In this document: positions 3,700-58,690 of the stretch, piece after piece
Position numbering within the stretch: position 1 is the stretch's first letter
How the letters are laid out: every line of letters starts with the position of its first letter
Source of the DNA: Mobula hypostoma
Taxonomy: Eukaryota
DNA: 64,000 nt
Reading direction: 5' to 3'
NCBI RefSeq assembly: GCF_963921235.1
Contig: NC_086108.1
Location: forward strand, 1,674,001-1,738,000
The notes under the pieces: model-generated
The model's database searches: none
The model's input: the letters and a program-made list of their open reading frames with translations, nothing else
What the model was told of the DNA's origin: nothing
Translations under genes and position numbers: made by a program

Positions 3700-4320
3700 T
3701 TATTGAAAAATAAAGAATTACTTACAAGTAAAGTTAGAGGCTACGGTACAGAATAAAATGTGCTTAAATATATAAATACTAGCATGAACCTACAATGTAA
3801 ACTGCATTATAAACAGTGGTTTAAAGTGTTTACACTGAGGTGATGGGGTAATAGAGGGGGGTGGAATGTAACTGGATCAGGTTAACTGTTGCGAGCGTGG
3901 GGAAGAAAGTTTTAAGATGGTGAGAAGTTTTTTTTTAAATAGCTCTATAGCACTTTCCAGAAGGGAGCATTCAGAGTAGGTAGTTTGCAGGGTGGGTCGT
4001 GTCAGCAAAGATTTTCCTGCTGGACACAAACAAGTTCTGCAATGATGGTCGACTGCAGCCAATGACCTTTTTTTGCTGACCTGACAGTTTGCTGTAGCTT
4101 TCGTATATCATGAGAGAGGATGCTGTACCAAACCAGACAGTAATGTCTGATGTGAGGATGTTCTCTATGAAGACAGTGTAGAAACACATCAGTATGTTGT
4201 GGGGAAGATGGAATTTTACCGACTGCCACAAGAAGTATTTTCTCTGCCAAGCCTTCTTGTTAGTGAAGGAGATAGGTTCTCCCATATGAGGTCCTGTGAA
4301 ATAACGATGCTCTTAATAAT
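3700..4320 (-). mobile_element. Rex1/Babar-like LINE 3' fragment
   Basis: Frameshifted motifs ENILTSDITVWFG and DTTHPANYL are typical of the Rex1/Babar RT C-terminus. Confidence 0.65.
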
Positions 4321-4389
4321 AATCATCATAATAAGTAGGTGGTGGGCGATTTACATGTCTGTCCTGCCTATACACTAACCAGTGGCTGC

Positions 4390-4902
4390 ATTGGCCGAAT
4401 ACAATCAAGTGGCCTCTTTATTAGGTACACCTGCACACCTATTCATTAATGCAAATATCTAATCATGGTTTATGCTTTTATCAATGCATAAAAGCATGCA
4501 GACATGGTCAAGAGGTTCAGTTATTGTTCAGAACGGGGAAGAAATGTGATCTAAGTGACTTTGACCGTGGAATGATTGTTGGTGCCAGATGGGGTGGTTT
4601 GCTAATCTCCGGCATGTTCACACACAACAGTCTCTAGAGTTTACAGAGAATGGTGCAAAAACCAAAAGCAAACATCCAGTGAGTGGCAGAGGTGAAAACG
4701 CCTTGTTAATGAGAGAAGTCAGAGGACGACAGTCAGTCTGGTTCGAGCTGACAGGAAGGTGACAGTAACTCAAGTAACCACACATTACTATGGTTTGCAG
4801 AAGACTATCCCTGAACACACAACACTTGGAACCTTAAAGTAGATGGACTGCAGCAGCAGGAAACCATGAACGTACACTCAGCGGCCACTATATTAGGTAC
4901 AG
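4390..4902 (+). mobile_element. non-autonomous Tc1/mariner-like element
   Basis: Terminal motif CAGTGGCCACTTTATTAGGTAC-like and transposase remnant DLSDFDRGMIVGAR. A second copy lies at 35301-35871 in reverse orientation. Confidence 0.7.
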
Positions 4903-5132
4903 GGGGAGGGGGTAACCCATTGTACAAGGAGAGCCTCAACATTGCAGACTGCCTGTCTTGGTTCAGGGGATGAGGAAGATGAATTCAATAACATTGCAAA
5001 AGAACGATGAAATTCGACTCCTCCCTGCCAACCTTTTCCAATATTCCAAATGTACCAGGGAAATATCCGGAGATGTCACAGACCCAAGAGTTGTGAACGC
5101 AGCCCAGTCCAGCTCAAAGTTCACCGTGAAAC

Positions 5133-6883
5133 TTGAGAAAGAGAAGCCAAAATCCTATGTGTCGGTATATCAGTGGAGTAAAGGAAATTACAGTGGCATG
5201 AGAGAGGAACTGGCCAAAGTTGACTGGAAAGGGACACTAGTGGGAAGGACAGCAGAGCAGCAGTGGCTGGAGTTTATGCAAGAAGTGAGGAAGGTGCAAG
5301 ACAGATATATTCTAAAAAAGAAGAAATTTTTGAATGGAAAAGGATGCAACCGTGGCTGACAAGAGAAGTCAAAGCCAAAGTTAGAGCAAAGGAGAGGGCA
5401 TACAAGGAAGCAAAAATTAGTGAGAAGACAGAGGATTGGGAAGTTTTTAAAACCTTACAAAAGGAAACTAAGAAGGTCATTAAGAGGGAAAAGATGAACT
5501 ATGAAAGGAAGCTAGCAAATAATATCAAACAGGATACTAAAAGCTTTTTCAAGTATATAAAGAGTAAAAGACATGTGAGAATAGGGATAGGACGGATAGA
5601 AAATGATGCTGGAGAAATTGTAATGGGAGATAAGGGGATGGCGGAGGAACTGAACGAGTATTTTGCATCAGTCTTCACTGAGGAAGGGAGATGCAGTGGA
5701 TGTTGTATATTCTGATTTTCAGAAGGCCTTTGACAAGGTGCCGCACGTGAGGCTGCTAAACAAGATAAGAGCCCATGGAATTACGGGATAGTTACATACG
5801 TGGATAGAGCGTTGGCTGATTGTCAGGAAACAGAGAGCGGGAATAAAGGGATTCCATTCTGGTTGGCTGCCGTTACCAGTGGTGTTCCACAGGGGTCCGT
5901 GTTGGGGCCGCTCCTGTTTACGTTGTACATCAACGATTTGGATTATGGAATAGATGGCTTTGTGGCTAAGTTTGCTGATGATACAAAGATAGGTGGAGGG
6001 GCCAGTAGTGCTGAGGAAACAGAGAGTCTGCAGAGAGACTTGGATAGATTGGAAGAATGGGCAAAGAAGTGACAAATGAAATACAATGTTGGAAAGTGTA
6101 TGGTTATGCACTTTGGCAGAAGAAATAGATGGCCAGACTATTATCTAAATTCAAAGTTCTGAGATGCAATGGGACTTGGGAGTCCTCATACAGGATACCC
6201 TTAAGGTTAACCTCCAGGTTGAGTCGGTAGTGAAGAAGGCGAATGCAATGTTGGCATTCATTTCTAGAGGAATAGAGTATAGGAGCAGGTATGTGATGTT
6301 GAGGCTCTATAAGGCGCTGGTGAGACCTCACTTGGAGTACTGTGTGTGCAGTTTTGGTCTCCTTATTTAAGAAAGGATGTGCTGACATTGGAGAGGGTAC
6401 AGAGAAGATTCACTAGAATGATTTCGGGAATGAGAGGGTTAACATATGAGGAACGTTTGTCCGCTCTTGGACTGTATTCCTTGGAGTTTAGAAGAATGAG
6501 GGGCGACCTCATAGAAACATTTTGAATGTTGAAAGGCATGGACAGAGTGGATGTGGCAAAGTTGTTTCCCATGATGGGGGAGTCTAGTACGAGAAGGCAT
6601 GACTTAAGAATTGAAGGGTGCCCATTCAGAACAGAGATGCAAAGAAATTTTACAGCCAGAGGGTGGTGAATCTATGGAATTTGTTGCCACAGGCGGCAGT
6701 GGAGGCCAAGTCATTGGGTGTATTTAAGGCAGAGATTGATAGGTATCTGAGTAGCCAGGGCATCAAAGGTTATGGTGAGAAGGCGGGGATGTGGGACTAA
6801 ATGGGAGAATGGATCAGCTCATGATAAAATGGCGGAGCAGACTCAATGGGCTGAATGGCCGACTTCTGCTCCTTTGTCTTATG
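5133..6883 (+). mobile_element. CR1-clade LINE fragment with internal deletion
   Basis: ORF pieces contain PWLTREVK, FFKYIKSK, SGVPQGSVLGPLLF, KFADDTK and LVRPHLEYC. Confidence 0.9.
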
Positions 6884-7774
6884 TCTATAATGCTATCTTA
6901 ACCAGATGTGCTACTTGTGCTGTGTGCAGTGCGCTGTGTGCTGTTGGTAATGTGTTTTGCACCTTGGCCCCAGAGGAACGCTGTTCTATTTGGCCATATC
7001 CACATATCCTACCAGCTGTTGCGCCACTGATAACGCTTTCCATAGATGCTGCCTCACCTGCTGAGTTCCTCAAGTGTTTTGTGTGTGTTGCAATGAAGAG
7101 AATAGATAGGAAATGGGAACCGGGGTGGAGATAGATCTCTACCAAAGGATGCTCACCTGTTAGCTCTCGAATAAGATCACATGGAGCCATGGGAGCGGGT
7201 GGTGGATGGTCGTATGAACAGCAGGTGCATATCACAATTCCTGGTTATACGACCACTGAACCCAGAAGGACAATCTCTGAAGAGTATTGATAATGGCTGG
7301 GAACACTCATCCTGTAAAGGCACAGCCCAGAAGAAGTCAATGGCAAACCAGTACTGCAGAAAAATTTGCCAAGAACAGTTGTGGTATGGGAAGACTATGA
7401 TTGCCTACGCCCTATTACAAGGCACATAATGAATGAACGATAGACAGGGATTCGCATGCAGGCATTTTCCCCTCATGTGTGGTGAGACTAGAACTAGAGG
7501 TTATTGGTTAAGGGTGAAACATGAAATATTTAGGGGAATCTGAGGGGAAACTTCTTCCCTTGGGGGATGATGCATATGCGGTTTAAGCTGCCAGTGGAAG
7601 TGGTAGATGTGGGTTCGATTGAAGTTTGGACATGTACATGGATTAGAGGGTATGGAGGGCTATGGTCTGAGACTAGACAGGAAACCGGGCTGGCACGGAC
7701 TAAATGGGCTGAAGAGTCTGTTTCTATGCTGTGGTGCTATATGACTCTATAACTGACAATAATAAACTCAGGCC

Positions 7775-8228
7775 TGGAGGACCAATGTTGTTTGTCATAT
7801 ACGTTAATGATCTGGATGATGGGGTGGTAAATTGGATTAGTAAGTATGCAGATGATACTAAGATAGGTGGAGTTGTGGATAATGAAGTAGGTTTTCAAAG
7901 CTTGCAGAGAGATTTAGGCCAGTTAGAAGAGTGGGCTGAAAGATGGCAGATGGAGTTTAATGCTGATAAATGTGAGGTGCTACATTTGGTAGGACTAATC
8001 AAAATAGGACATGCATGGTAAATGGTAGGGCATTGAAGAATGCAGTAGAACAGAGGGATCTAGGAATAATGGTGCATAGTTCCCTGAAGATGGAATCTCA
8101 TGTGGATAGGGTGGTGAAGAAAGCTTTTTGTATGCTGGCCTTTATAAATCAGAGCATTGAGTATAGGAGTTGGGATGTAATGTTGAAATTGTACAAGGCA
8201 TTGGAGAGGCCAAATTTGGAGTATTGTG
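7775..8228 (+). mobile_element. CR1 RT fragment
   Basis: Encodes LFVIYVNDLDDG..KYADDTKIGG..FNADKCEVLH. Confidence 0.85.
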
Positions 8229-8897
8229 ATATACTGCATCCGGTGCTCCCGATGTGGCCTTCTATATATTGGCGAGACCCGATGCAGACTGGGACACCTA
8301 CGCTCTGTCCGCCAGAGAAAGCAGGATCTCCCAGTGGCCACACATTTTAATTCCACATCCCATTCCCATTCTGACATGTCTATCCACGGCCTCCTCTACT
8401 GTAAAGATGAAGCCACACTCAGGTTGGAGGAACAACACCTCATATTCCGTCTGGGTAGCCTCCAACCTGATGGCATGAACATCGACTTCTCTAACTTCCG
8501 CTAAGGCCCCACCTCCCCCTCGTACCCCATCTGTTACTCATTTTTATGCACACATTCTTTCTCTCACTCTCCTTTTTCTCCCTCTGTCCCTCTGAATATA
8601 CCTCTTGCCCATCCTCTGGGTCACCCCCCCCTCCTTGTCTTTCTTCCCGGACCTCCTGTCCCATTATCCTCTCGTATCCCCTTTTGCCTATCACCTGTCC
8701 AGCTCTCGGCTCTATCCCTCCCCCTCCTGTCTTCTCCTATCATTTTGCATCTCCCCCTCCCCCTCCAGCTTTCAAATCCCTTACTCACTCTTCCTTCAGT
8801 TAGTCCTGACGAAGGGTCTCGGCCTGAAACGTCGACTGCGCCTCTTCCTGTAGATGCTGCTTGGCCTGCTGTGTTCACCAGCAACTTTGATGTATGT
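8226..8897 (+). mobile_element. Penelope-like element 3' part (GIY-YIG endonuclease + terminal repeat)
   Basis: IYCIRCSRCGLLYIGET...VATHFN...EEQHLIFRLGSLQPDGMN is the PLE GIY-YIG domain. It is followed by a pyrimidine-rich UTR and a hammerhead-like motif. Confidence 0.85.
8802..8837 (+). ncRNA. minimal type-I hammerhead ribozyme motif (PLE-associated)
   Basis: Reads AGTC-CTGACGA-AGGGTCTCGGCCT-GAAA-CG-TC^GACT. Stem I is AGTC/GACT, the core is CUGANGA...GAAA...UC, and stem III is palindromic ACGT. Confidence 0.75.
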
Positions 8898-9119
8898 TAC
8901 TCCTACATAATCCTCTATTTTTTTGTATCATCCATGTGCCTAACTTAAATGTCCCCAGTGTATCTGCCTCCACCACCATCCCAAGCAGGGCATTCCACAC
9001 ACCCACCATGTTCAACTTACCTCTGACATCCCCCCCCCGAGAACAAACCCATCATCCTAAACAAATTCAAAAGGTAATCTGATAGAAACACCAGAAAATC
9101 TGCAGATGCTGGAAACATG

Positions 9120-9805
9120 AGTCTCCACAACTTCCACCATCCTCAATGGCATCCTAGCACAAAGGCACATTTTCCCCTCCACTCTCCACCTCCTGTGGAG
9201 ATCTTGGCCTGAAAATTCAATGTGTTTACTCTTTTCCATGGGCGCTGCCTGACCTGCTGAGTACCTCCATCATTCTGTGTGTGCTGCTTTGGACTTCCAG
9301 CATCTGCAGACTTCTTTTCAAAGTTTACTCTCTATGTGACTCCCTTGCTCACTCATTCCTCCTCACCATCTCCCTCCTGGCACTTATCCCAGCCATCGGG
9401 ACAAGTGCCACAACTGCATCTACACCTACTCCCTCAGCACAACCAAAGGCCAGAACAGTTCTTGCAGTGGCCACCCATTTCCATTCCAACGTGTCCGCCC
9501 ATGGCCACTAGGGTCTTGATGAGGCCACTCTCAGGTTGGAGGAACAACACCTCATTCCATCTGACCACCAACCTGATAGCATGAATATTGATTTCTCTAA
9601 CTTCTGGTAAATTCTCCTGCTCTTCCCCCTCTTCTCTTTTTCCATTTCCAGTTCTGGTTCCTCTCTCACTTGACCAATACCTCCTCTGGTTCCTCTCCTC
9701 CTTCTCTTTCTCTAGCCCTTTGTCTCTTCCACCTGTTACCGCCCAGCTTCTTACTTCATTCCACCTCCCACACCCACCTTCTCCCTTACCTGCTTTCACC
9801 TATCA
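9120..9805 (+). mobile_element. degenerate Penelope-like fragments
   Basis: Same GIY-YIG tail (gtggccacccattt..., aggttggaggaacaacacctc) and terminal-repeat pieces as 8226-8897. Confidence 0.65.
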
Positions 9806-11392
9806 CATAGAAACACAGAAAACCTACAGCACAATACAGGCCTTTTGGCCCACAAAGCTGTGCCGAACATGTCCTTACCATAGAAATTACCTAGGCTTAC
9901 CCATAGCCCTCTACTTTTCTAAGCTCCATGTATCTATGCAGGAATCTCTTAAAAGACCCTATCGTATCCACCGCCACCACTGTCACCGGCAGCCCATTCC
10001 ACGCACTCACCATTCTCTGTGTTAAAAACTTACCCCTGACACCTCCTCTGTACCTACTTCCAAGCACCTTAAAACTGTGCCCTCTCATGCTAGACATTTC
10101 AGCCCTGGAAAGAAGCCTCTGACTATCCACACGATCAATGCCTCTCATCATCTTATACATCTCTGTCAGGTCACCTCTCATCCTCCGTCATTTCAAGGAG
10201 AAAAGGTCAAGTTCACTCAACCTATTCTCATAAGGCATGCTCCCCAATACAGGCAACATCCATGTAATTCTCCTCTGCACTTTTTCTATGGTTTCCACAT
10301 CCTTCCTGTAGTGGGATGACCAGAACTGAGCACAGTACTCCAAGTGGGGTCTGACCAGGGTCCTATATAGCTGCAACATTACCCCTCGGCTCCTAAACTC
10401 AGTCCCATGATTGATGAAGGCCAATGCACCGTATGCCTTCTTAACCACAGAGTTAACCTGTGCAGCAGCTTTGAGTGTCCTATGGACTTGGACCCTGAGA
10501 TCCCTCTGATCCTCCACACTGCCAAGAGTCTTACCATTAATACTATACTTTGCAATCATATTTGACCTACCAAAATGAACCACCTCACACTTATCTGGGT
10601 TGAACTCCATCTGCCACTTCTCAACCCAGTTTTGCATCCCATCAATGTCCCTCTGTAACCTCTGACAGCCCTCCACACTATCCACAACACGTCCAACCTT
10701 TGTGTCATCAGCAAATTTACTAACCCAACCCTCCATTTCCTCATCCAGGTCATTTATAAAAATCACGAAGAGTAAGGGTCCCAGAACAGATCCCTGAGGC
10801 ACACCACTGCTCACTGGCCTCCATGCAGAATATTACCCATCTACAACCACTCTTTGCCTTCTGTGGGCAAGCCAGTTCTGGATCCACAAAGCAATGTCCC
10901 CTTGGATCCCATGCCTCCTTACTTTTAGCCACAACCTCAAAAAATTCAATCAGGCCCATAGGGCACGTCCTGCCTTTGACAAAGCCATGCTGACTATTCC
11001 TAATCATATTATGCCTCTCCAAATGTTCATAAATCCTGCCTCTCAGGATCTTCTCCATCAACTTACCAACCACTGAGGTAAGACTCACTGGTCTATAATT
11101 TCCTGGGCTATCTCTACTCCCTTTCTTGAATAAGGGAACAACATCCGCAAGCTTCCAATCCTCCAGAACCTCTCCCGTCCCCATTGATGATGCAAAGATA
11201 ATTGCCAGAGGCTCACAAATCTCCTCCCTCACCTCCCACAGTAGCCTGGGGTATATCTCGTCTGGTCCCGGTAACTTATCCAACTTGATGCTTTCCAAAA
11301 GCTCCAGCACATCCTCTTTCTTAATATCTACATGCTCAAGCTTTCCAGTCCACTGTAAGTCATCCCTACAATCGCCAAGATCCTTTTCCATA
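9806..11392 (-). mobile_element. CR1-clade LINE 3' half (RT)
   Basis: ORFs 10750-11430 and 10188-10814 contain [29 protein letters not shown] and KFADDTK. Confidence 0.92.
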
Positions 11393-18721: not shown

Positions 18722-19335
18722 TACAGCACGTACCGTAATGATAGCACATTCAGTCACACACAACACGTATCATAATGATAGCAAAGTTACACACAGCACA
18801 TACGATAGCTCATACAGTCACACACAGTGCATACCATAAGGATAGCACATACAGTCGCACACAGCATGTTCAGTAACAATAGTACATAAGTCACACACGT
18901 GCTGTAATGATAGCACATACAGTCGCACACAGCATGTACCATAATGATAGCAAATACAGTCACACATAGCACATACCATCACACACAGTATGTACCGTAA
19001 TGATAGCACAGTCACACACAGCACATACAGTCATATACAGCATGTACTGTATCGATAGTACATAGTCACAGACAGTACATACTGTAACAATAGTACATGT
19101 TAACACACACGACACATACCGTAATGATAGCACATTCAGTCACACACAGCACGTATCATAACAATAGCACATAGTCACATACCGTATCGATAGTACATAC
19201 AGTCACAGACAGCACATACTGTAACGATAGTACATGTTAACACACACAACACATACCATAACGATAGCACATACAGTCACACACCGTAACGATAGTACAT
19301 ACAGTCACACCCCATAATGATAGTACATACAGTCA
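18722..19335. repeat. degenerate minisatellite, about 37-bp unit
   Basis: Unit is approximately GATAGCACATACAGTCACACACAGCACATACCATAAT, repeated with indels. Confidence 0.85.
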
Positions 19336-20132
19336 CAGGATAATATTAGCACAAGCCCCTGGGTGGTGTAGCTTGGAGATTGATGGTGTATGGGATGGTG
19401 TGCTGGAGCCACGATTCTGGAAGGACAAGCACAGAGCAGTTGTTCATTTCACTCTGGGTCAGCCACAGGTGAAGGCAAATAGGCTTGTCTTCCAGGGAGC
19501 AAACACTGGAGAGCAGCACTGACTGTCTCAGATTTTAGTGCACCTGTCACTTCTCTGTTGTCCCTCATGGAATCTCCAGTGACTCCTCCCCTGGGTGATT
19601 CTAACAGGTTGTTACATTATTATTCTTTGACTATGTAATGTGTCAGGCATAGAACAATATACCACAGGATCTGCTCTTTTAGACCATGGCCAAGAGAAAA
19701 TCTGCAGATGCTGGAAATCCAAAGCAAAACACACAATATACTGGAGAAACTCAGCGGGCCTGGCAGCATCTATGGAAAAGAATAAACAGTCGACATTTCG
19801 GGTCAAGACCCTTTAAAACCACAGTGTTGTGGCAAGCTAATTAAACAAGTGACCTAATCTCTTGCCTACACAATGTGCATATCCATCCACTTGCTGTACC
19901 TTTGTGCCTTCCCAAGATCCTTTTCAATAGCGCCCTTGTATGCTCTGTTTTTTGGAAACACTTAGATAAGGACGTGGATGAAAGAAAAATCAGCACCATG
20001 TAGAAGGGAAGGGATAGATTGATTTTCGAGTAGGTTGTCTGACAAAATGTCATGGGCCAAAGGGCCAGTCCTGTGCTATAATATTCCATCTACATGCCTT
20101 CACCATCAACCTGGCAACCCTTTCCAGGCAAC

Positions 20133-22085
20133 CATAGAAACCATAGAAACTACAGCACAGAAACAGGCCTTTTGGCCCTTCTTGACTGTGCCGAACCATT
20201 TTCTGCCTAGTCCCACTGACCTGCACACGGACCATATCCCTCCATACACCTCCCATCCATGTATCTGTCCAACTTATTCTTAAATGTTACAAAAGAACCC
20301 ACATTTACCACCTCGTCTGGCAGCTCATTCCATACTCCCACCACTCTCTGTGTGAAGAAGCCCCCACTAATGTTCCCTTTAAACTTTTCCCCCCTCACCC
20401 TTAACCCATGTCCTCTGGTTTTTTTCTCCCCTTGCCTCAGTGGAAAAAGCCTGCTTGCATTCACTCTATCTATACCCATCATAATTTTATATACCTCTAT
20501 CAAATCTCCCCTCATTCTTCTACGCTCCAGGGAATAAAGTCCTAACCTATTCAACCTTTCTCTGTAACTGAGTTTCTCAAGTCCCGGCAACATCCTTGTA
20601 AACCTTCTCTGCACTCTTTCAACCTTATTTATATCCTTCCTGTAATTTGGTGACCAAAACTGAACACAATACTCCAGATTCAGCCTCACCAATGCCTTAT
20701 ACAACCTCATCATAACATTCCAGCTCTTATTCTCAATACTTTGATTAATAAAGGCCAATGTACCAAAAGCTCTCTTTACGACCCTATCTACCTGTAACGA
20801 CACTTTTAGGGAATTTTGTATCTGTATTCCCAGATCCCTCTGTTCCACTGCACTCCTCAGTGCCTTACCATCAACCCTGTATGTTCTACCTTGGTTTGTC
20901 CTTCCAACGTGCAATACCTCCCACTTGTCAGTATTAAACTCCATCTGCCATTTTTCAGCCCATTTTTCCAGCTGGTCCAAGTCCCTCTGCAGGCTCTGAA
21001 AACCTTCCTCACTGTCTACTACACCTCCAATCTTTGTATCATCAGCAAACTTGCTGATCCAATTTACCACATTATCATCCAGATCATTGATATAGATGAC
21101 AAATAACAATGGACCCAGCACTGATCCCTGTGGCACACCACTAGTCACAGGCCTCCACTCAGAGAAGCAATTCTCTACCACCACTCTCTGGCTTCTTCCA
21201 TCGAGCCAATGTCTAATCCAATTTACCACCTCTCCATGTATACCTAGCGACTGAATTTTCCTAACTAACCTCCCATGCGGGACCTTGTCAAAGGCCTTAC
21301 TGAAGTCCATGTAGACAATATCCACTGCCTTCCCTTCATCTACTTTCCTGGTAACCTCCTCAAAAAACTCCAACAGATTGGTCAAACATGACCTACCACG
21401 CACAAAGCCATGTTGACTCTCCTTAATAAGCCCCTGTCTATCCAAATGCTTGTAGATTCTGTCTCTTAGCACTCCCTCCAATAACTTACCTACTACTGAC
21501 GTTAAACTCGCCGGCCTATAATTTCCCGGATTACTTTTCGATCCTTTTTTAAACAACGGAACAACATGAGCCACTCTCCAATCCTCCGGCACTTCACCCA
21601 TAGACAGCAACATTTTAAATATTTCTGCCAGGGCCCCCGCAATTTCAACACTAGTCTCCTTCCAGGTCCGAGGGAACACTCTGTCAGGTCCCGGGGATTT
21701 ATCCACTTCAATTTTCCTCAAGACAGCAAGCACCTCCTCCTTTTCGATCTGTACAGTTTCCATGATCTCACTACTTGATTCCCTCAATTCCATAGATTTC
21801 ATGCCAGTTTCCTTAGTAAATACAGACGCAGAAAACCCATTTAAGATCTCCCCCATTTCCTTTGGTTCCGCACAAAGCCGACCACTCTGATCTTCAAGAG
21901 GACCAATTTTATCCCTTACAATTCTTTTGCTCTTAATATACTTGTAAAAGATCTTTGGATTATCCTTCACTTTGACTGCCAAGGCAACCTCATGTCTTCT
22001 TTTAGCCCTCCTGATTTCTTTCTTAAGTATTTTCTTGCACTTCTTATACTCCTCAAGCACCTTATTTATCCCTGTTTCCTATACA
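20133..22085 (-). mobile_element. young 5'-truncated CR1 LINE with open 617-aa RT frame
   Basis: ORF 20207-22060 spans the full RT core ([37 protein letters not shown]) without stops. The tail is (CATAGAAAC)2. Confidence 0.95.
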
Positions 22086-36550: not shown

Positions 36551-39165
36551 AAGTTGCACAAAAAGTTTGTGAACCTTTTGCAATTACCTGTTTTCTGCAA
36601 TAATTACTCATAAAACATGGCCTGATCTTCATCTAAGTCTCAATAATAGACAAACATAATCTGCCTAATCTAATAACACAAAGACAATTGTACTTTCCAG
36701 AATCAGAATCAGGTTTATTATCAATGGCATGTGACATGAAATTTGTTAAGTTAGCAGCAGCAGTTCAATGCAATACATAATCTAGCAGAGAAAATAATAA
36801 TAAATAAATTAATAAATAAGTAAATCAATTGCAGTATACATATATTGAATAGAGATACTGTATGTTTAAAAAAAAATGAAGTAGTGTCCAAAGATTTGAT
36901 GTCCATTTAGGAATTCAATGGCAGAGGGGAAGAAGCTGTTCCTGAATCGCTGAGTGTGTGTCTTCAGGCTCCTGTACCTCCTACCTGATGGTAACAGTGA
37001 AAAAAGGGCATGTCCTGGGTGTTGGAGGTCCTTAATAATGGACGCTGTCTTTCTGAGACACCGCTCCTTGAAGATGTCCTGGGTAATTTGTAGGCCAGTA
37101 CCCAAGATGGAGCTGACTAGATTTACAACCTTCTGCAGCTTCTTTCTGTCCTGTGCAGTAGCCCCTCCATACCAGACAGTGATGCAGCCTGTCAGAATGC
37201 TCTCCATGGTACAACTGTAGAAGTTTTTGAGTGTATTTGTTGACATGCCAAATCTCTTCAAACTCCTAATGAAGTATAGCCACTGTCTTGCCTTCTTTAT
37301 GACTACATCGATATGTTGGGACCAGGTTAGATCCTCAGAGATCTTGACACCCAGGAACTTGAAACTGCTCACTCTCTCCACTTCTGATCCCTCTATGAGC
37401 ATTGGTATGTGTTCCTTCATCTTACCCTTCCTGAAGTCCACAATCAGCTCTTTCGTCTTACTGACGTTGAGTGCCAGGTTGTTGCTGTGGCACCACTCCA
37501 CTAGTTGGCATATCTCACTCTCGTACACCCTCTCGTCACCACCTGAGATTCTACCAACAATGGTTGTATCATCAACAAATTTGTAGATGGTATTTGAGCT
37601 ATGCATAGCCACACAGTCATGTGTATACGGAGAGTAGAGCAGTGGGCTAAGCACACACCCCTGCGGTGTGCCAGTGGGCGATCGTCAGCGAGGAGGATAT
37701 GTTATCACCAATCCACACAGATTGTGGTCTTCTGGTTAGGAAGTCAATGATCCAATTGCGAAGGGAGGTACAGACATGTGTTCATGTCTTTATTGAACAC
37801 ATTGTTTAATCATTCACAATCCAGGCTGGAAAAAAGCATGGAAACCTTAACTGGTAGAATCTCCTTTAACAGCAATAACCTCCACCAAATGTTTCCTGTA
37901 GCTGCCATCAGACTTGCACAATGGTTTGGAGGAATTTTAGACCATTCCTCCATATAAAACTGTTTCAGCTCATCAATATTTTTGGGATACCTTGCATGAA
38001 CAGCCCTCTGCAGGTCATGCCACAGCATCTCAATTGGGTTGGGGTCTGGATTCTGACGTGGCCATTCCAAAACACAAATTTTCTTCTTTTTAAACCATTC
38101 TGTTGTTGATATACTCTTTTGTGTTTCGGATCATTGTCTTGTTGTATCATCCAACTTCTATTAAACTTCAGGTGACGGACTGCTACCCTGACATTCTCCT
38201 GTAAAATATCTTGATATAATTTTGAATTCATTGTTCTCTCAGTGACTGCAAGCTGTCCAAGCCCTGAGGCAGCAAAGCAGACCCAAACCATGATACTCCT
38301 TCCACCATGCGGCACAGTTCAACTTCTGTCTTATCCGTCCTTGGGACACTGTCCCTGAAGCATTGTGGAACATCCAGGTGGTCTCTTGCAAACTTGAGAC
38401 ATGCAGCAATGTTTTTAATAGAGAGCAGAGGTTTCCTCCGTGGTGTCCTTCCACGAACACCATTCTTGTTCAGTGTTTTTCTTATAGTGGACACATGAAC
38501 AGAGACTTTAGCAAGTTCTAGAGGTTTCTGCAGGTCTTTTGCTGTTACCCTTGGGTTCTTTTTCACCTCCCTCAGCATTGCATGTTGTGCTCTTGGTGTG
38601 ATCTTTGCAGGATGCTCATCCCAAGAAAAATAGCAACGGTACTGAGTTTCCTCCATTTGTAGGCAATTTCTCTTACTGTGGACTGATGAACACTCAGGTC
38701 TTTAGAAATACTTTTGTAGCCTTTTCGGGCTTCATGCTTCTCTACAATTCTTCTTCTAAGATGCTCTGATGGTTGTTTTCATTGAGGCATGGTACACATA
38801 AACAGATCTTTCTTGAGAAAATCAGGTTTTGCCAGTAACCTGATTGTCTTTTTTTTTACAGGTCAGGGCACCTGTTCAACCCACATCTCCAATCTCATCT
38901 CACTGACTGGAACATCTGACTCCAAATAGCTTTGTAGAAGGAACTACCCCAGAGGTTCCCATACTTTTTTGAACCTAGAATATGATTGTTTGAATGGTGT
39001 ACTCAGTATGCCGAGAAGAAGGATAACTGTTGGTGTGTTATTAGTCTAAGCAGGTTGTTTTTGTATATTATTCTAACTCAGATGAACATCAGACCACATT
39101 TTATGAGTAATTAATGCAGAAAACCAGGTAACTGCAAAGGGTTCACAAAATTTTTCTTGCACCCG
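36551..39165 (-). mobile_element. Tc1-family DNA transposon (long TIRs), decayed, with nested Rex1
   Basis: TA flanks at 36549-50 and 39166-67. The ends are long inverted repeats. Transposase pieces include HGGRSIMVWVCF, QQDNDPKH and WPRQNPDPNPIEMLW. Confidence 0.92.
36698..37774 (-). mobile_element. Rex1/Babar LINE 3' part nested in the Tc1 TIR
   Basis: ORF 36866-37654 (262 aa) contains LSPLLYS, KFVDDTT, LNVSKTKELIVDFRK and LPSGRRYRS. The tail is (ATTCTG)n. Confidence 0.9.
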
Positions 39166-42388: not shown

Positions 42389-42952
42389 AGCCTTAGGTTC
42401 CACACCACCAGGTTCAGGAACAGTTATTACCCCACAACCATCAGGCTCCTGAACCAGTGTGGATAACTTCACCCACCACAATGAGCCTCAGGTCCCACAC
42501 CACCAGGTTCAGGAACAGTTATTACCCTTCAACCATCAGACTCCTGAACCAGTGTGGATAACTTCACTCACCACAATGAGCCTCAGGTCCCACACCACCA
42601 GGTTCAGGAACAGTTATTACCCCACAACCATCAGGCTCCCGAACCAGTGTGGATAACTTCACTCACCACAATGAGCCTCAGGTCCCACACCACCAGGTTC
42701 AGGAACAGTTATTACCCCACAACCATCAGGCTCCTGAACCAGTGTGGATAACTTCACCCACCACAATGAGCCTCAGGTCCCACACCACCAGGTTCAGGAA
42801 CAGTTATTACCCCACAACCATCAGGCTCCTGAACCAGTGTGGATAACTTCACTCACCACAATGAGCCTCTGGTCCCACACCACCAGGTTCAGGAACAGTT
42901 ATTACCCCACAACCATCAGGCTCCTGAACCAATGTGAATAACTTCACTCACC
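42389..42952 (+). repeat. tandem array of about 6 x 95-bp units derived from a Rex1-type LINE 3' end
   Basis: Identical ORF starts at 42459, 42554, 42649 and 42744 (period 95). The unit encodes SLRSHTTRFRNSYYPTTIRLLN. Confidence 0.92.
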
Positions 42953-48649: not shown

Positions 48650-50270
48650 CTGCAGAGGAGGCAAGCAGACTGAGGTAGAGCAAAAGTGCACAAGAGCTGG
48701 TGTCAATCAGAGACTGGGGTTGCACTTGTCATCTCTCAACTACCCACCCACCCAACTCTTCCTCTCAACCTCCTCTACTTCCAGTCTCTAGCTAGAGTTT
48801 AAATGCAGAGAGCGGGGATATGCCCAGCTAGTTAACAGGATGATTCTTAACAATGTGGCCAAACAGATAGGTCTTCTATAGACCCCTCAAAGTTGCCACA
48901 CAAACTAACAGGGTGGTTAAGAAGGTGTCTCTTGTGTTGGTCTTAATTAGTCAGGAGACTGAGTTCAAGAGCCGTGAGGTAATGCTGCAGCTCTATAAAA
49001 CACTGGTTATACTACACTTCTGGGTGGCGGTTGGAGATAAGATTCTACCAAAGGAGGTGTAAGGCACTCCTTCCATCCACTAGCCTGCAGGTCACCCTTA
49101 AGCAAGGTTTAGCACTTGCTTAGCCATCCTCCACCCTCCACCCCCACCCACGATCGGGGTCACGTGAAACCATGGGAGCAGGTAATGGATGGTCCTATGA
49201 GCAGCTGGTCCTGGTTATGTGACCACAGAAGCCAGGCAGACAATCTCTGAGGAGTATTGATCATGGCTGAGGGTCACCTGTTTTGTAAAGACACTGCCCC
49301 AGCAGGCAATGGCAAACCACTTCTGTAGAAAAATTTGCCAAGAACAATCATGGTCAACGTCATCCGATATGACACATAATGGTGATGATGATACCACACT
49401 TGGAGAATTGTGTTCAGTTATGGTCACCTCATTATAGGAAGGACGTTGTTATAAGACCTGCCTTAACCCCTCCCTCTAGCAGCTCATTCAATACATGGAC
49501 CACCCTCTATGTGAAAAAGGCTGCCCCTCAGGTTCCTACCATAACTCTCTCTTCTCACCTTAAACCTATGCCCTCTAGTTCTTGATTCTGCAACCTTGGG
49601 TAAAAAACTGTCCACATTCGCATTCACTATGCCCCTCGTGAACACAGAATAGTACAGGCCCTTCAGCCCACGATGTGCTGACTTTTTACCTTACTCCAAG
49701 ATCAATCTAACCCTTCCCTCCCGCAGAGCTCTCCACTTTCGTTCATCCATGTGCCTATCAAAGAGCCTCTTAAATCTGCCTGCACCAACATCCCTGGCAG
49801 CATGTTCCAGACACCTACTACTCTTGTGTAAAACACCTGACATCCCGCCCCCCCAATACCTTCCTCCAAACACCTTAAAATGATGCCCTCTCGTACTCGC
49901 CACTTCCACCCTGGGGAGAAAAACATTTGATCTATGTCTCTTATCTTATACATATCTAACCAGTCGAGGTGTAGCACGATGTCTGGCTGCTCACCCTCCC
50001 ACTTAATTTTTGAGGCGTGAAACATGCATTTGACGAGGACGAGAGCAGAGGACAGGCGGGTGCCTGCCTGTGTTTGACCTGTCTTCCTCTCCCTCTTGCT
50101 AGCTGCAGTCGGAGGTAAGTGCAGCAATCTTGGGATTCACGTTGCCAGGATTGATCAGTGGAGCTGTGGACTCATTTTGCCAGACTTTGAGGTTCATGTT
50201 GCACATGTCTGGATTCTGGTTACGATTTTTTTTGCTGTTTTTGACTGGTTTGATCGGAGCGATCAATGCG

Positions 50271-50630
50271 GACTGGGGCGCTTCGGCGAAGAATAGCCCT
50301 GCGGCGGACTGGGGCGCTTTGGTGAAGAATAGCCCTGCGGTGGACTGGGACGCTTTGGTGAAGAATAGCCCCGCGGCCAACTGGGACGCTTCGGTGAAGG
50401 ATAGCCCCGCGGCAGACTGGGATGTTTCGGTGAAGAATAGCCCCGCGGCGGACTGGGACACTTCGGTGAAGAATAGCCCCGCGGCGGACTGGGACGCTTC
50501 GGTGAAGAATAGCCTCGCGGCCAACTGGGGCGCTTCCATGAAGAATAGCCCCGCGGCGGACTGGGGCGCTTCAGCAAAGAATAGCCCTGCGGTGGGCTGG
50601 GGCGCTTCGGTGAAGAATAGCTCTGCGGCC
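50271..50630. repeat. CpG-rich minisatellite, 10 x 36 bp
   Basis: Unit GACTGGG(G/A)CGCTTCGGTGAAGAATAGCCCCGCGGCG, head-to-tail, with no indels. Confidence 0.95.
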
Positions 50631-52042
50631 TGCATTAGCAAGCGGCGCTGAACCGAGCAAAAATGAACACCACCGGACTCTGATTTGATGCTCAATATTC
50701 TCTGTGTTGTTCACTTGCTTTTCACCAATTGTGAAATTTGTTCTTTTTCACGCATTGGGTGTTTGATATTTTCCTGAACGGGTTCCATGGTGTTCCTGTG
50801 CTCTGTGGCTGCCTGCGGGAGGACAAATCTCAGAGTTATATTCTCTATTCATACTGTGATGACAAATGGATTTTGAATCTTTGTCCCTTAGCCCCAGACT
50901 CCCAGATCAATTCCTATGCTACAAGGAATAAATTTGTTGCTTGCTCAACCTCTCCCAATAACCTTGTCCCTTCACTCCAGGAACACCCTCTTCATGGTGG
51001 CAGGCAGCGTACTGGTTAGTCGAAGTCTTGTCGATGGGCTTTGGCCTGAAGCGTCGACTGTACTTTTTCCCATAGATGCTGCCTGGCCTGCTGAGTTCCT
51101 CCAGCGTTTTGTGTGTGTTGTACTGGTTAGCACAATGTAGCCATCTGTAAGATAAAGGGCTCAATTCCTGCCGCTGTCTGTAACGAGTTTATATCTCCCT
51201 CTGTTTTCCTCCCATGTTCCAAAGATGTTAGGGCTGTGAGTTGGGAGAATGCAAACTTGGCGCTGGAAGCATGGTGACACTTGGAAGCTGCCAGCAAAAT
51301 CCTCGCTGATTCGATTTTGATGAAAAACGACACATTTCACTGTATGCTTTGTTGTACGTGTAACAAATTAAGCTAATTTTAAATATTTTCTCTGCTTTTT
51401 TCAGCTTATTGGTGGTTTTCCTATAGCAGAGTGATCAAAACTCAACCCAATACTCAAGTCACTGGACAAAATTTTGAGATGGGGTGGGGGGGGTGGGCAG
51501 CACAATAGCATATCAGTTAACACAACACTTTACAGTACCAGCGATCTGGGTTCAATTCCCAATGTGCCTGTAAGGAGTTTGTATGTTCTCCCAGGCCATG
51601 TGGGTTTCCTCCCACAGTCCAAAGACATACTGGTTGGCTAGTTAATCGGTCATTGTAATTTGTCCCGTGGTTAGGCTAGAGTTAAATCTGGGATTGCTAG
51701 GTGGTGGGAAAGGAAAGGAAAGGAAGGAAGAAAGGGAGGGGTGGTTAGACGGATAGATATTCAATTTGGCTGAGCAAAGAGCTTCATAATGGGGGGAAAG
51801 AGAGGAGGACATGCTTGGGACTGGCCACTGCCCCGATGCTAAAAGTGGAGCACTACACATGACTAAAACTGAAGAGGAACAGTGATCTCCGTGGTAACAG
51901 TGAGGTAACATTACAGATGTAAAGAAAGGAACAAAGCCACACAGCAGTTTGAACACAAGGATAAAGATGATAAATACAAACAGAAAATCTTGGCAATAAT
52001 CAGTAGATCCAGCGGCATCTGCAGGAAGAGATAACTGCTCTA

Positions 52043-58240: not shown

Positions 58241-58690
58241 TTACTGTAAAGATGAAGCCACACTCAGGTTGGAGGAACAACACCTCGTATTCCATCTGGG
58301 TAGCCTCCAACCTAATGGCATGAACATTGACTTCTCTAAGTTCCATTAATGCCCCTCCTCCCCATCTTACCCCCTTCCTTATTTATTTATTTATTCCCCT
58401 TTCTTTCTCTCTCTTTTTTCTCCCTCTGTCCCTCTCACTATATCTTCCTCTGGGTCCCCTCCCCCCGCCCCATCTTTCTTCCCAGACCTCCTGTCCCATG
58501 ATCCTCTCGTATCCCTTTTGCCTATCACCTGTCCAGCTCTTGGCTCCATCCCTCCCCCTCCTGTCTTCTCCTATCATTTTGGATCTCCCCCTCCCCCTCC
58601 CACTTTCAAATCTCTTACTAGCTCTTCCTTCAGTTAGTCCTGACGAAGGGTCTCAGCCGGAAACATCGACTGAAACTCTTCCAATAGATA
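58241..58690 (+). mobile_element. Penelope-like 3' fragment with near-intact hammerhead motif (58636-58671)
   Basis: Near-identical to 8398-8860. The motif reads AGTC-CTGACGA-AGGGTCTCAGCCG-GAAA-CATC-GACT. Confidence 0.82.

Follow-up and report, generated by a model that had tools for sequence, protein, structure and literature searches.

A truncated Penelope-like element of the ray Mobula hypostoma carries a minimal type-I hammerhead motif in its 3′ terminal repeat

Hammerhead ribozymes are described as the rule in the terminal repeats of Penelope-like elements (PLEs) (PMC4209133, PMC8557442). The minimal hammerheads of metazoan PLEs (PMC4209133) are of type I, have a short stem I and an extra base between positions 9 and 10.1, carry only a palindrome in place of stem III, and lie in the terminal repeat behind the nuclease; in all of these respects the motif that we describe here is like them. 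The descriptor published for them (PMC4209133 supplement) consists of a stem I of 3–7 bp, the box CUGANGA with an optional additional base, a stem II of 3–7 bp with a loop of 3–10 nt, and the box GAAANNUH. The catalytic record of such motifs is poor. The motif of S. mansoni shows no activity as a monomer and little as a dimer or trimer (PMC4209133), and one of nine Xenopus dimers cleaved (bioRxiv 10.64898/2026.07.22.740005). The hammerhead of the anole Poseidon PLE requires the element's protein for cleavage; insertion in vitro does not depend on it, and no reads end at its cut site (PMC11167929).

The window examined in this study is a stretch of 64,000 nt of the M. hypostoma genome (NC_086108.1, positions 1,674,001 to 1,738,000, forward strand). 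Bases 8801–8838 of this window form a 38-nt minimal type-I hammerhead motif on the + strand, in sense to the element that carries it. An initial annotation, made from the letters of the window, had read AGTC at 8802–8805, CTGACGA at 8806–8812, GAAA at 8826–8829, then CG, TC, and GACT at 8834–8837, and had placed the cut after C8833. These letters and coordinates are right, and the cut is correctly placed, as hammerhead numbering makes 8806–8812 C3–A9, 8826–8829 G12–A15.1, 8832 U16.1 and 8833 C17; the predicted cut thus falls between 8833 and 8834 on the + strand. The first core box and an extra unpaired A8813 that follows it (8806–8813, +) are recognised from the sequence and from the descriptor and consensus of PMC4209133, and the descriptor match extends over the second box, the palindrome ACGT at 8829–8832, which does stand in place of stem III as had been proposed, and C17 (8826–8833, +). 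This copy has kept every one of the 12 core positions, as well as the palindrome.

The two stems needed some revision. Stem I had been given as AGTC/GACT, a correct pairing that is one pair too short: with T8801·G8838 added it comprises 5 bp, the 5′ arm at 8801–8805 (+) pairing with the 3′ arm at 8834–8838 (+) with probabilities of 0.55–0.98 in the fold of the 38-mer. The short stem II that had been noted is present and can be refined to 4 bp after the unpaired A8813, in which 8814–8817 pair with 8822–8825 around a 4-nt loop (8814–8825, +) and the 10.1–11.1 pair that closes the stem is G·U; pair probabilities in the 38-mer are 0.87–0.97, compared with 0.02 for the alternative register A8813–T8825, and 95% of cells are paired over 10 copies. 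Thus the usual G10.1–C11.1 pair is absent from this copy. Since several published motifs also have G·U there (S. mansoni (1), cichlids and Xenopus (1), PMC4209133 supplement), this pair is not new. With 4 bp, stem II is among the shorter ones published for minimal hammerheads.

The motif sits behind the remnant of a PLE open reading frame in the same orientation. The GIY-YIG endonuclease remnant that had been claimed about 300 nt upstream is indeed there, its stop codon at 8502–8504 lying 298 nt before 8802 on the same strand. Translation and tblastn from 8226 identify 8226–8504 (+) as a 5′-truncated Penelope-like ORF remnant with a C-terminal GIY-YIG endonuclease, read in a frame from 8232 to 8501 with an in-frame gap of five residues. 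The nuclease fragment itself has no Pfam match; a protein search with it matched 29 of 46 candidates, the best being from M. hypostoma (P0001, 88% identity) and Hypanus sabinus (83%), followed by whale shark and skates, an order that points to a myliobatiform ray as the likely source. A GIY-YIG domain is present in the relatives P0001, P0003 and P0006, which combine reverse-transcriptase (RT) motifs, a cysteine linker and the C-terminal nuclease in one ORF; the RT has been lost from the 8226–8900 copy, and none of the relatives found extends to the ORF start. The linker CX2-5CxxC was seen in P0001, P0002 and P0006 (as C-x4-C-x2-C in P0001 and P0006), and a linker of this form between RT and nuclease is given as the layout of Neptune, and also of Nematis, in PMC8557442 and PMC3846280. 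The element therefore likely belongs to the Neptune group, judging by the linker of its relatives, which is found in Nematis as well. Together, the descriptor match, the nuclease remnant and the relatives support the assignment first made from the letters, namely that an elasmobranch PLE here carries a minimal type-I hammerhead at its 3′ end. Related loci with flanking DNA were absent from the viral and prokaryote collections, by protein as well as by pattern. A scan of metagenomes yielded 114 loci that we rejected as chance matches, none of the 114 having a hammerhead upstream.

Between the ORF and the motif, the pyrimidine-rich 3′ untranslated part of the terminal repeat (8505–8800, +; 80% pyrimidine, 3 AG in 295 nt) ends in a pyrimidine tract and an acceptor-like AG (8798–8799) and is 86% identical to a sister copy at 58242–58689. 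Behind the motif, the rest of the 3′ end (8839–8900, +) comprises a second pyrimidine stretch, the letters TAG-ATG at 8851–8856 and a conserved block at 8854–8898. The copy ends at about 8900 without an optional tail that other copies carry, as seen in loose ends at 8898, from 43105 onward and at 9295–9313. Its left neighbour is a fragment of a CR1/L2-type LINE reverse transcriptase (7779–8228, +) with a 78% match to a LINE ORF at 20665–21115, the ORF at 20210–22078 containing an RVT_1 domain; five further LINE copies also stop matching at 8228–8229, and the LINE fragment does not resume 3′ of the PLE. We conclude that 8226–8900 is a 5′-truncated, dead insertion with one terminal repeat. The 64-kb window contains no full-length PLE in which paired or tandem pseudo-LTRs might be seen. 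Seven gene models (P0003, P0012, P0014, P0015, P0027, P0030 and P0031) are partly or wholly PLE sequence under host-gene or uncharacterised names; such PLE-containing gene models of rays and skates are either exonisation or annotation artefacts.

The family is well represented in the window. With five nhmmer queries at E below 0.01 we counted 15 loci of the Penelope-like 3′ end, including the 8226–8900 copy; five rows from one of the queries were left out as apparent matches to its LINE or low-complexity flank. Many of the 15 are short fragments without ORF sequence. Both core boxes are kept in two of the 15 (8806 and 58640), and only the one at 8806 passes the published descriptor and a stricter one of our own that requires the palindrome. 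The other, the sister copy of the same subfamily at 58242–58689 (+), fails both, and its 10.1–11.1 pair and palindrome are broken; it shares the run of ORF end, untranslated part and hammerhead over 462 nt. The nearest other 3′-end copy (9202–9313, +), which lies inside an older remnant of the same family at 9133–9805, is decayed and truncated inside the hammerhead; its first core box is missing and its palindrome lost, so that no dimer can form in cis. Several copies are likewise truncated inside the motif, with 5′ starts spread from about 8808 to 8852 and none piled at the cut site at 8834, and the motif occurs nowhere in the window as a tandem repeat.

Several smaller features of these copies are recorded here in their own right. 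Two copies of the optional tail, inverted relative to each other, are found at 9096–9114 (−) and 9295–9313 (+) with 180 nt between them, the unit lying in the older remnant at 9133–9805. Such a layout has been described for Penelope-like insertions. In four of the seven copies with a full 5′ part (370, 23164 (−), 25369 (−) and 51023) T replaces core C3, which is not a CpG site. These copies may represent an older subfamily characterised by U3·G8, as also seen in one published minimal-hammerhead entry (PMC4209133 supplement). At 8830–8834 the old copies, few in number, show CpG changes that look one-sided, TG prevailing at 15.2–16.2 and CA at 17–1.1, which may reflect subfamily states. Finally, the ATG at 8854–8856, 20 nt after the cut, is a candidate ORF start: its frame runs through the tail in several older copies and is shifted in the subfamily of the 8226–8900 copy.

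Conservation beyond the window was followed in four of 22 listed sequencing runs, from four studies, by comparing assembled contigs (5,347, 3,791, 92 and 783 per run) on 346 of the 676 query bases. The largest listed piles of loose contig ends flank stem I in all four runs, with 87, 59, 10 and 21 contigs ending before 8802 and 115, 64, 15 and 19 behind 8838, the right edge of the 3′ arm. Contigs with other flanks thus match exactly 8802–8838, and the block is kept across subfamilies. The same is seen in the window, where five copies that lack the upstream sequence of the 8226–8900 copy (one of them truncated there) are identical to the block at 25–30 of 38 positions as against 14–24 of 40 just upstream. 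However, the block at 8854–8898 is also common to the subfamilies (22–36 of 45 identical), and so the conservation is not special to the ribozyme. Differences among the five copies fall on 11 of 60 cells in the core, 21 of 90 in the stems and 15 of 40 elsewhere, the core thus varying at about the same rate as the stems. The stem covariation that the initial annotation had put forward as a check did not appear: in an alignment of 10 loci, which remained from 14 candidates after removal of two that were out of register, one in an advanced state of decay and one unrelated, no pair was changed on both sides, and the covariation score was reached by 302 of 500 shuffles, ten decayed copies giving low power. 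Over these copies pairing was kept at 95% in stem II and 68% in stem I, the fourth pair of stem II occurring as U·G, C-G and U-A and the 10.1–11.1 pair as G·U in five copies, G-C in four and unpaired in one.

We had considered that the G·U at 10.1–11.1 might be CpG decay peculiar to the 8226–8900 copy. This was dropped when T at 8825 proved to be the majority letter in all four runs, with C in 20, 29, 39 and 15% of depth, although contig depth is a rough measure and reference bias favours the reference letter; the mirror CpG change at 8826 accounts for 2–3% in three runs and 17% in the fourth. From these letters U11.1 is likely the state of the parent lineage rather than damage to this copy. 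Among the rows listed, no private change falls within 8801–8838, compared with at least 13 places outside it that differ from the majority of run X1. Because zero changes in 38 nt at the outside rate has a p value of 0.20, the intactness of the motif shows no selection on this copy.

Structure prediction gives little encouragement for activity. The monomer is predicted to fold as a rod in which 8808–8810 pair with 8831–8833 (p 0.98–0.99), trapping the core; the hammerhead fold has a probability of 0.0006, or 0.00003 with flanks, and the double-hammerhead dimer is placed at −11.5 kcal/mol against −30.3 kcal/mol for the best alternative dimer by a model that ignores tertiary contacts of the core. 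A 5′-truncated copy without an intact partner, whose predicted rod fold would trap the core, is expected to have low activity, and in view also of its weak relatives we regard the self-cleavage predicted for 8801–8838 as doubtful. The account that we favour, and consider probable, is that this is the hammerhead of the 3′ repeat of a Neptune-group PLE. In intact tandem elements the RNA would be cleaved weakly behind C17, and likely only if the ACGU palindrome brings two copies together or the element's protein refolds the RNA. The lone 8226–8900 copy would be an inert passenger. Both cleavage and its dependence on dimer or protein are here argued by analogy with described PLE hammerheads.

Could the motif be a coincidence? 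The published descriptor has a single match in the 64-kb window (8806–8833) and two matches in 1,500 dinucleotide shuffles, and the stricter descriptor finds the same single match and none in 1,000 shuffles. Other measures do not separate the motif from background. Taken by themselves, the two core boxes do not exceed chance (10 occurrences in 64 kb versus 6.58 expected, a number reached in 12 of 100 shuffles), the folding energy of the 36-mer is no better than that of shuffles (z −0.37), and the comparison with hammerhead models proposed in the initial annotation found no Rfam match at E up to 10 in 7500–10000 and none at gathering score in the window. The lack of an Rfam match and the ordinary folding energy are expected of a motif without stem III, yet neither gives support, and all three results are what one would see if the match were accidental. 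Nevertheless, given the rarity of full descriptor matches in shuffles and the position of the motif exactly where the published rule for PLEs places it, we consider a chance origin close to inconceivable. It is also conceivable that the block descends from a hammerhead but is kept for a role other than catalysis, such as a protein-binding site or splice signals of a terminal-repeat intron, and is never cleaved. This reading would account for loop II and stem II being kept letter by letter with no two-sided covariation, for an active fold disfavoured in silico as both monomer and dimer, for acceptor-like signals flanking the motif and for 5′ truncation points that spread over about 8808–8852 rather than piling at 8834, and it accords with the anole element, whose cleavage is dispensable for insertion with no reads ending at the cut site (PMC11167929). 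Even so, a block that starts and ends precisely at the arms of stem I, with 12 core positions and the palindrome intact in the 8801–8838 copy, is more readily understood as a ribozyme, and the relatives that have been tested do cleave, if weakly; we thus hold a purely non-catalytic role to be unlikely.

Two further possibilities concern the unit to which the motif belongs and who uses it. Many of the 15 fragments are short and without ORF sequence, and tandem retrozymes derived from such terminal repeats have been reported in one chondrichthyan (bioRxiv 10.64898/2026.07.22.740005), as would be expected if the motif were part of a non-autonomous retrozyme or SINE-like repeat that lies behind an endonuclease remnant by coincidence. 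However, the sister copy has the same order of ORF end, untranslated part and hammerhead over 462 nt, the window holds no tandem repeat of the motif, and the starts of the short copies vary in the manner of 5′ truncation, all of which makes a separate repeat very improbable. The same small likelihood attaches to the suggestion that the 8801–8838 copy is active alone and serves the host, which would have adopted it to cleave a transcript running through the locus. Although the lack of a private change in 8801–8838 among the rows listed, against at least 13 outside (run X1), could be read in this way, the p value of 0.20 for such intactness, the predicted misfolding of the monomer and the nature of the long ORFs checked in the window, which are transposon pieces or unassigned, all speak against it.

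Leaving the favoured reading aside for a moment, the letters around stem I raise a bolder idea, one that we put forward as speculation and think rather improbable: the ray PLE hammerhead may coincide with the 3′ splice site of an intron in the terminal repeat, splicing and cleavage being mutually exclusive, with tens of thousands of intact copies per genome and some of them in host mRNAs. A pyrimidine tract ends in AG just before or within the 5′ arm of stem I (8798–8799 or 8802–8803), and the second pyrimidine stretch ends in the TAG-ATG at 8851–8856 (AG 8852–8853), 20 nt after the cut; an AG precedes the point equivalent to 8854 in 8 of 11 family loci, a signal weakened by the AG-poor composition of the region. 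A protein search in the frame from 8802 returned two proteins among four candidates, both Mobula gene models, of which P0030 is compatible with a join at 8799/8800, as an acceptor at 8799 would give, and P0031 reads through the upstream letters with no join at the acceptor. A search in a second frame gave one bacterial match (E 4.7) among 1,599 candidates, which we attribute to chance. Among the joints listed in the four contig runs none was compatible with splicing, the donor likely lying outside the 346 bases compared. As to numbers, one descriptor match per 64 kb scales to 34,000–62,000 in batoid genomes of 2.2–4.0 Gb (sizes from bioRxiv 10.64898/2026.10.27.761883), with a 95% range of 870 to 348,000, and 13 family fragments (the count before the final 15) scale to 0.45–0.8 million per batoid genome; a single window is a poor sample. 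The highest published numbers, described as remarkable, are about 4,000 and 9,000 hammerheads, in coelacanth and Xenopus (PMC4209133). Were the idea true, with one acceptor in the 5′ arm of stem I and a second 20 nt past the cut, splicing and cleavage would exclude each other, and half a million or more family ends would mean more hammerheads than the 4,000–9,000 of coelacanth and Xenopus.

The window contains other features apart from this family. An ORF of 182 residues (50103–50651, +) encodes a hydrophobic stretch followed by ten 12-residue repeats (a 36-bp tandem with 87% matches); the opposite strand is also open and there is no Pfam match, and it may belong to a transposon or be a minisatellite that by chance lacks stops. 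At 42389–42952 (+) a 95-bp unit is repeated six times in tandem with 96% similarity among the copies, and a truncated PLE end lies 60 nt downstream; we take the unit to resemble the 3′ end of a LINE. A Tc1-type transposase fragment lies at 38228–38701 (−) and a compound minisatellite with periods of 19–100 bp at 18804–19337.

Returning to the weakly cutting Neptune-group hammerhead that we favour, a single such copy is of little import, hammerheads being standard in PLE terminal repeats. The family, on the other hand, could be a large natural data set on what weak ribozymes do for an element: very many copies seem to be present in rays, divided among several subfamilies that differ in their flanks and keep the ribozyme block, which makes selection on catalysis testable against selection on other signals. 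Table S1 and Fig. S3 of PMC4209133 include no cartilaginous fish among their entries, and the literature searched, subscription journals and repeat databases being outside that search, yielded no account of the motif from sharks or rays. Tandem hammerhead repeats have, however, been counted in a chondrichthyan in one preprint (bioRxiv 10.64898/2026.07.22.740005), whose supplementary tables may cover this ray family.

Against this background the locus can be placed among the systems described so far. Canonical Rfam hammerheads have a stable stem III and contacts between loops I and II, whereas the motif here is without stem III. The animal non-LTR retrozymes, as presented in the same preprint, share with it a type I hammerhead from Penelope terminal repeats; they are tandem and non-coding, whereas the 8226–8900 copy stands alone and is joined without a break to an ORF remnant, and the window, with one descriptor match, contains no array of tandem non-coding hammerhead units. 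In Drosophila virilis Penelope the end of an intron lies at the 5′ arm of helix I (PMC4209133), the same place at which an acceptor-like AG is found here; that intron, of 75 bp, has been demonstrated (PMC8557442), while the ray locus offers acceptor-like letters. The PAc hammerhead of the Anolis Poseidon element (PMC11167929) is likewise part of a terminal repeat, in a nuclease-bearing element of a vertebrate, and comes with two 3′ ends, with and without a tail of 30–40 nt, as among the window copies. PAc belongs to the Poseidon clade, its ORF starting inside stem II, whereas the relatives of the ray element have a Neptune-type cysteine linker, and its protein-assisted cleavage has been demonstrated, whereas the hammerhead here is known from sequence alone. 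Among the published minimal hammerheads, an Acropora Neptune entry (PMC4209133 Fig. S3) has the core letters and the palindrome of the ray motif, together with a stem II of 4 bp and a 4-nt loop.
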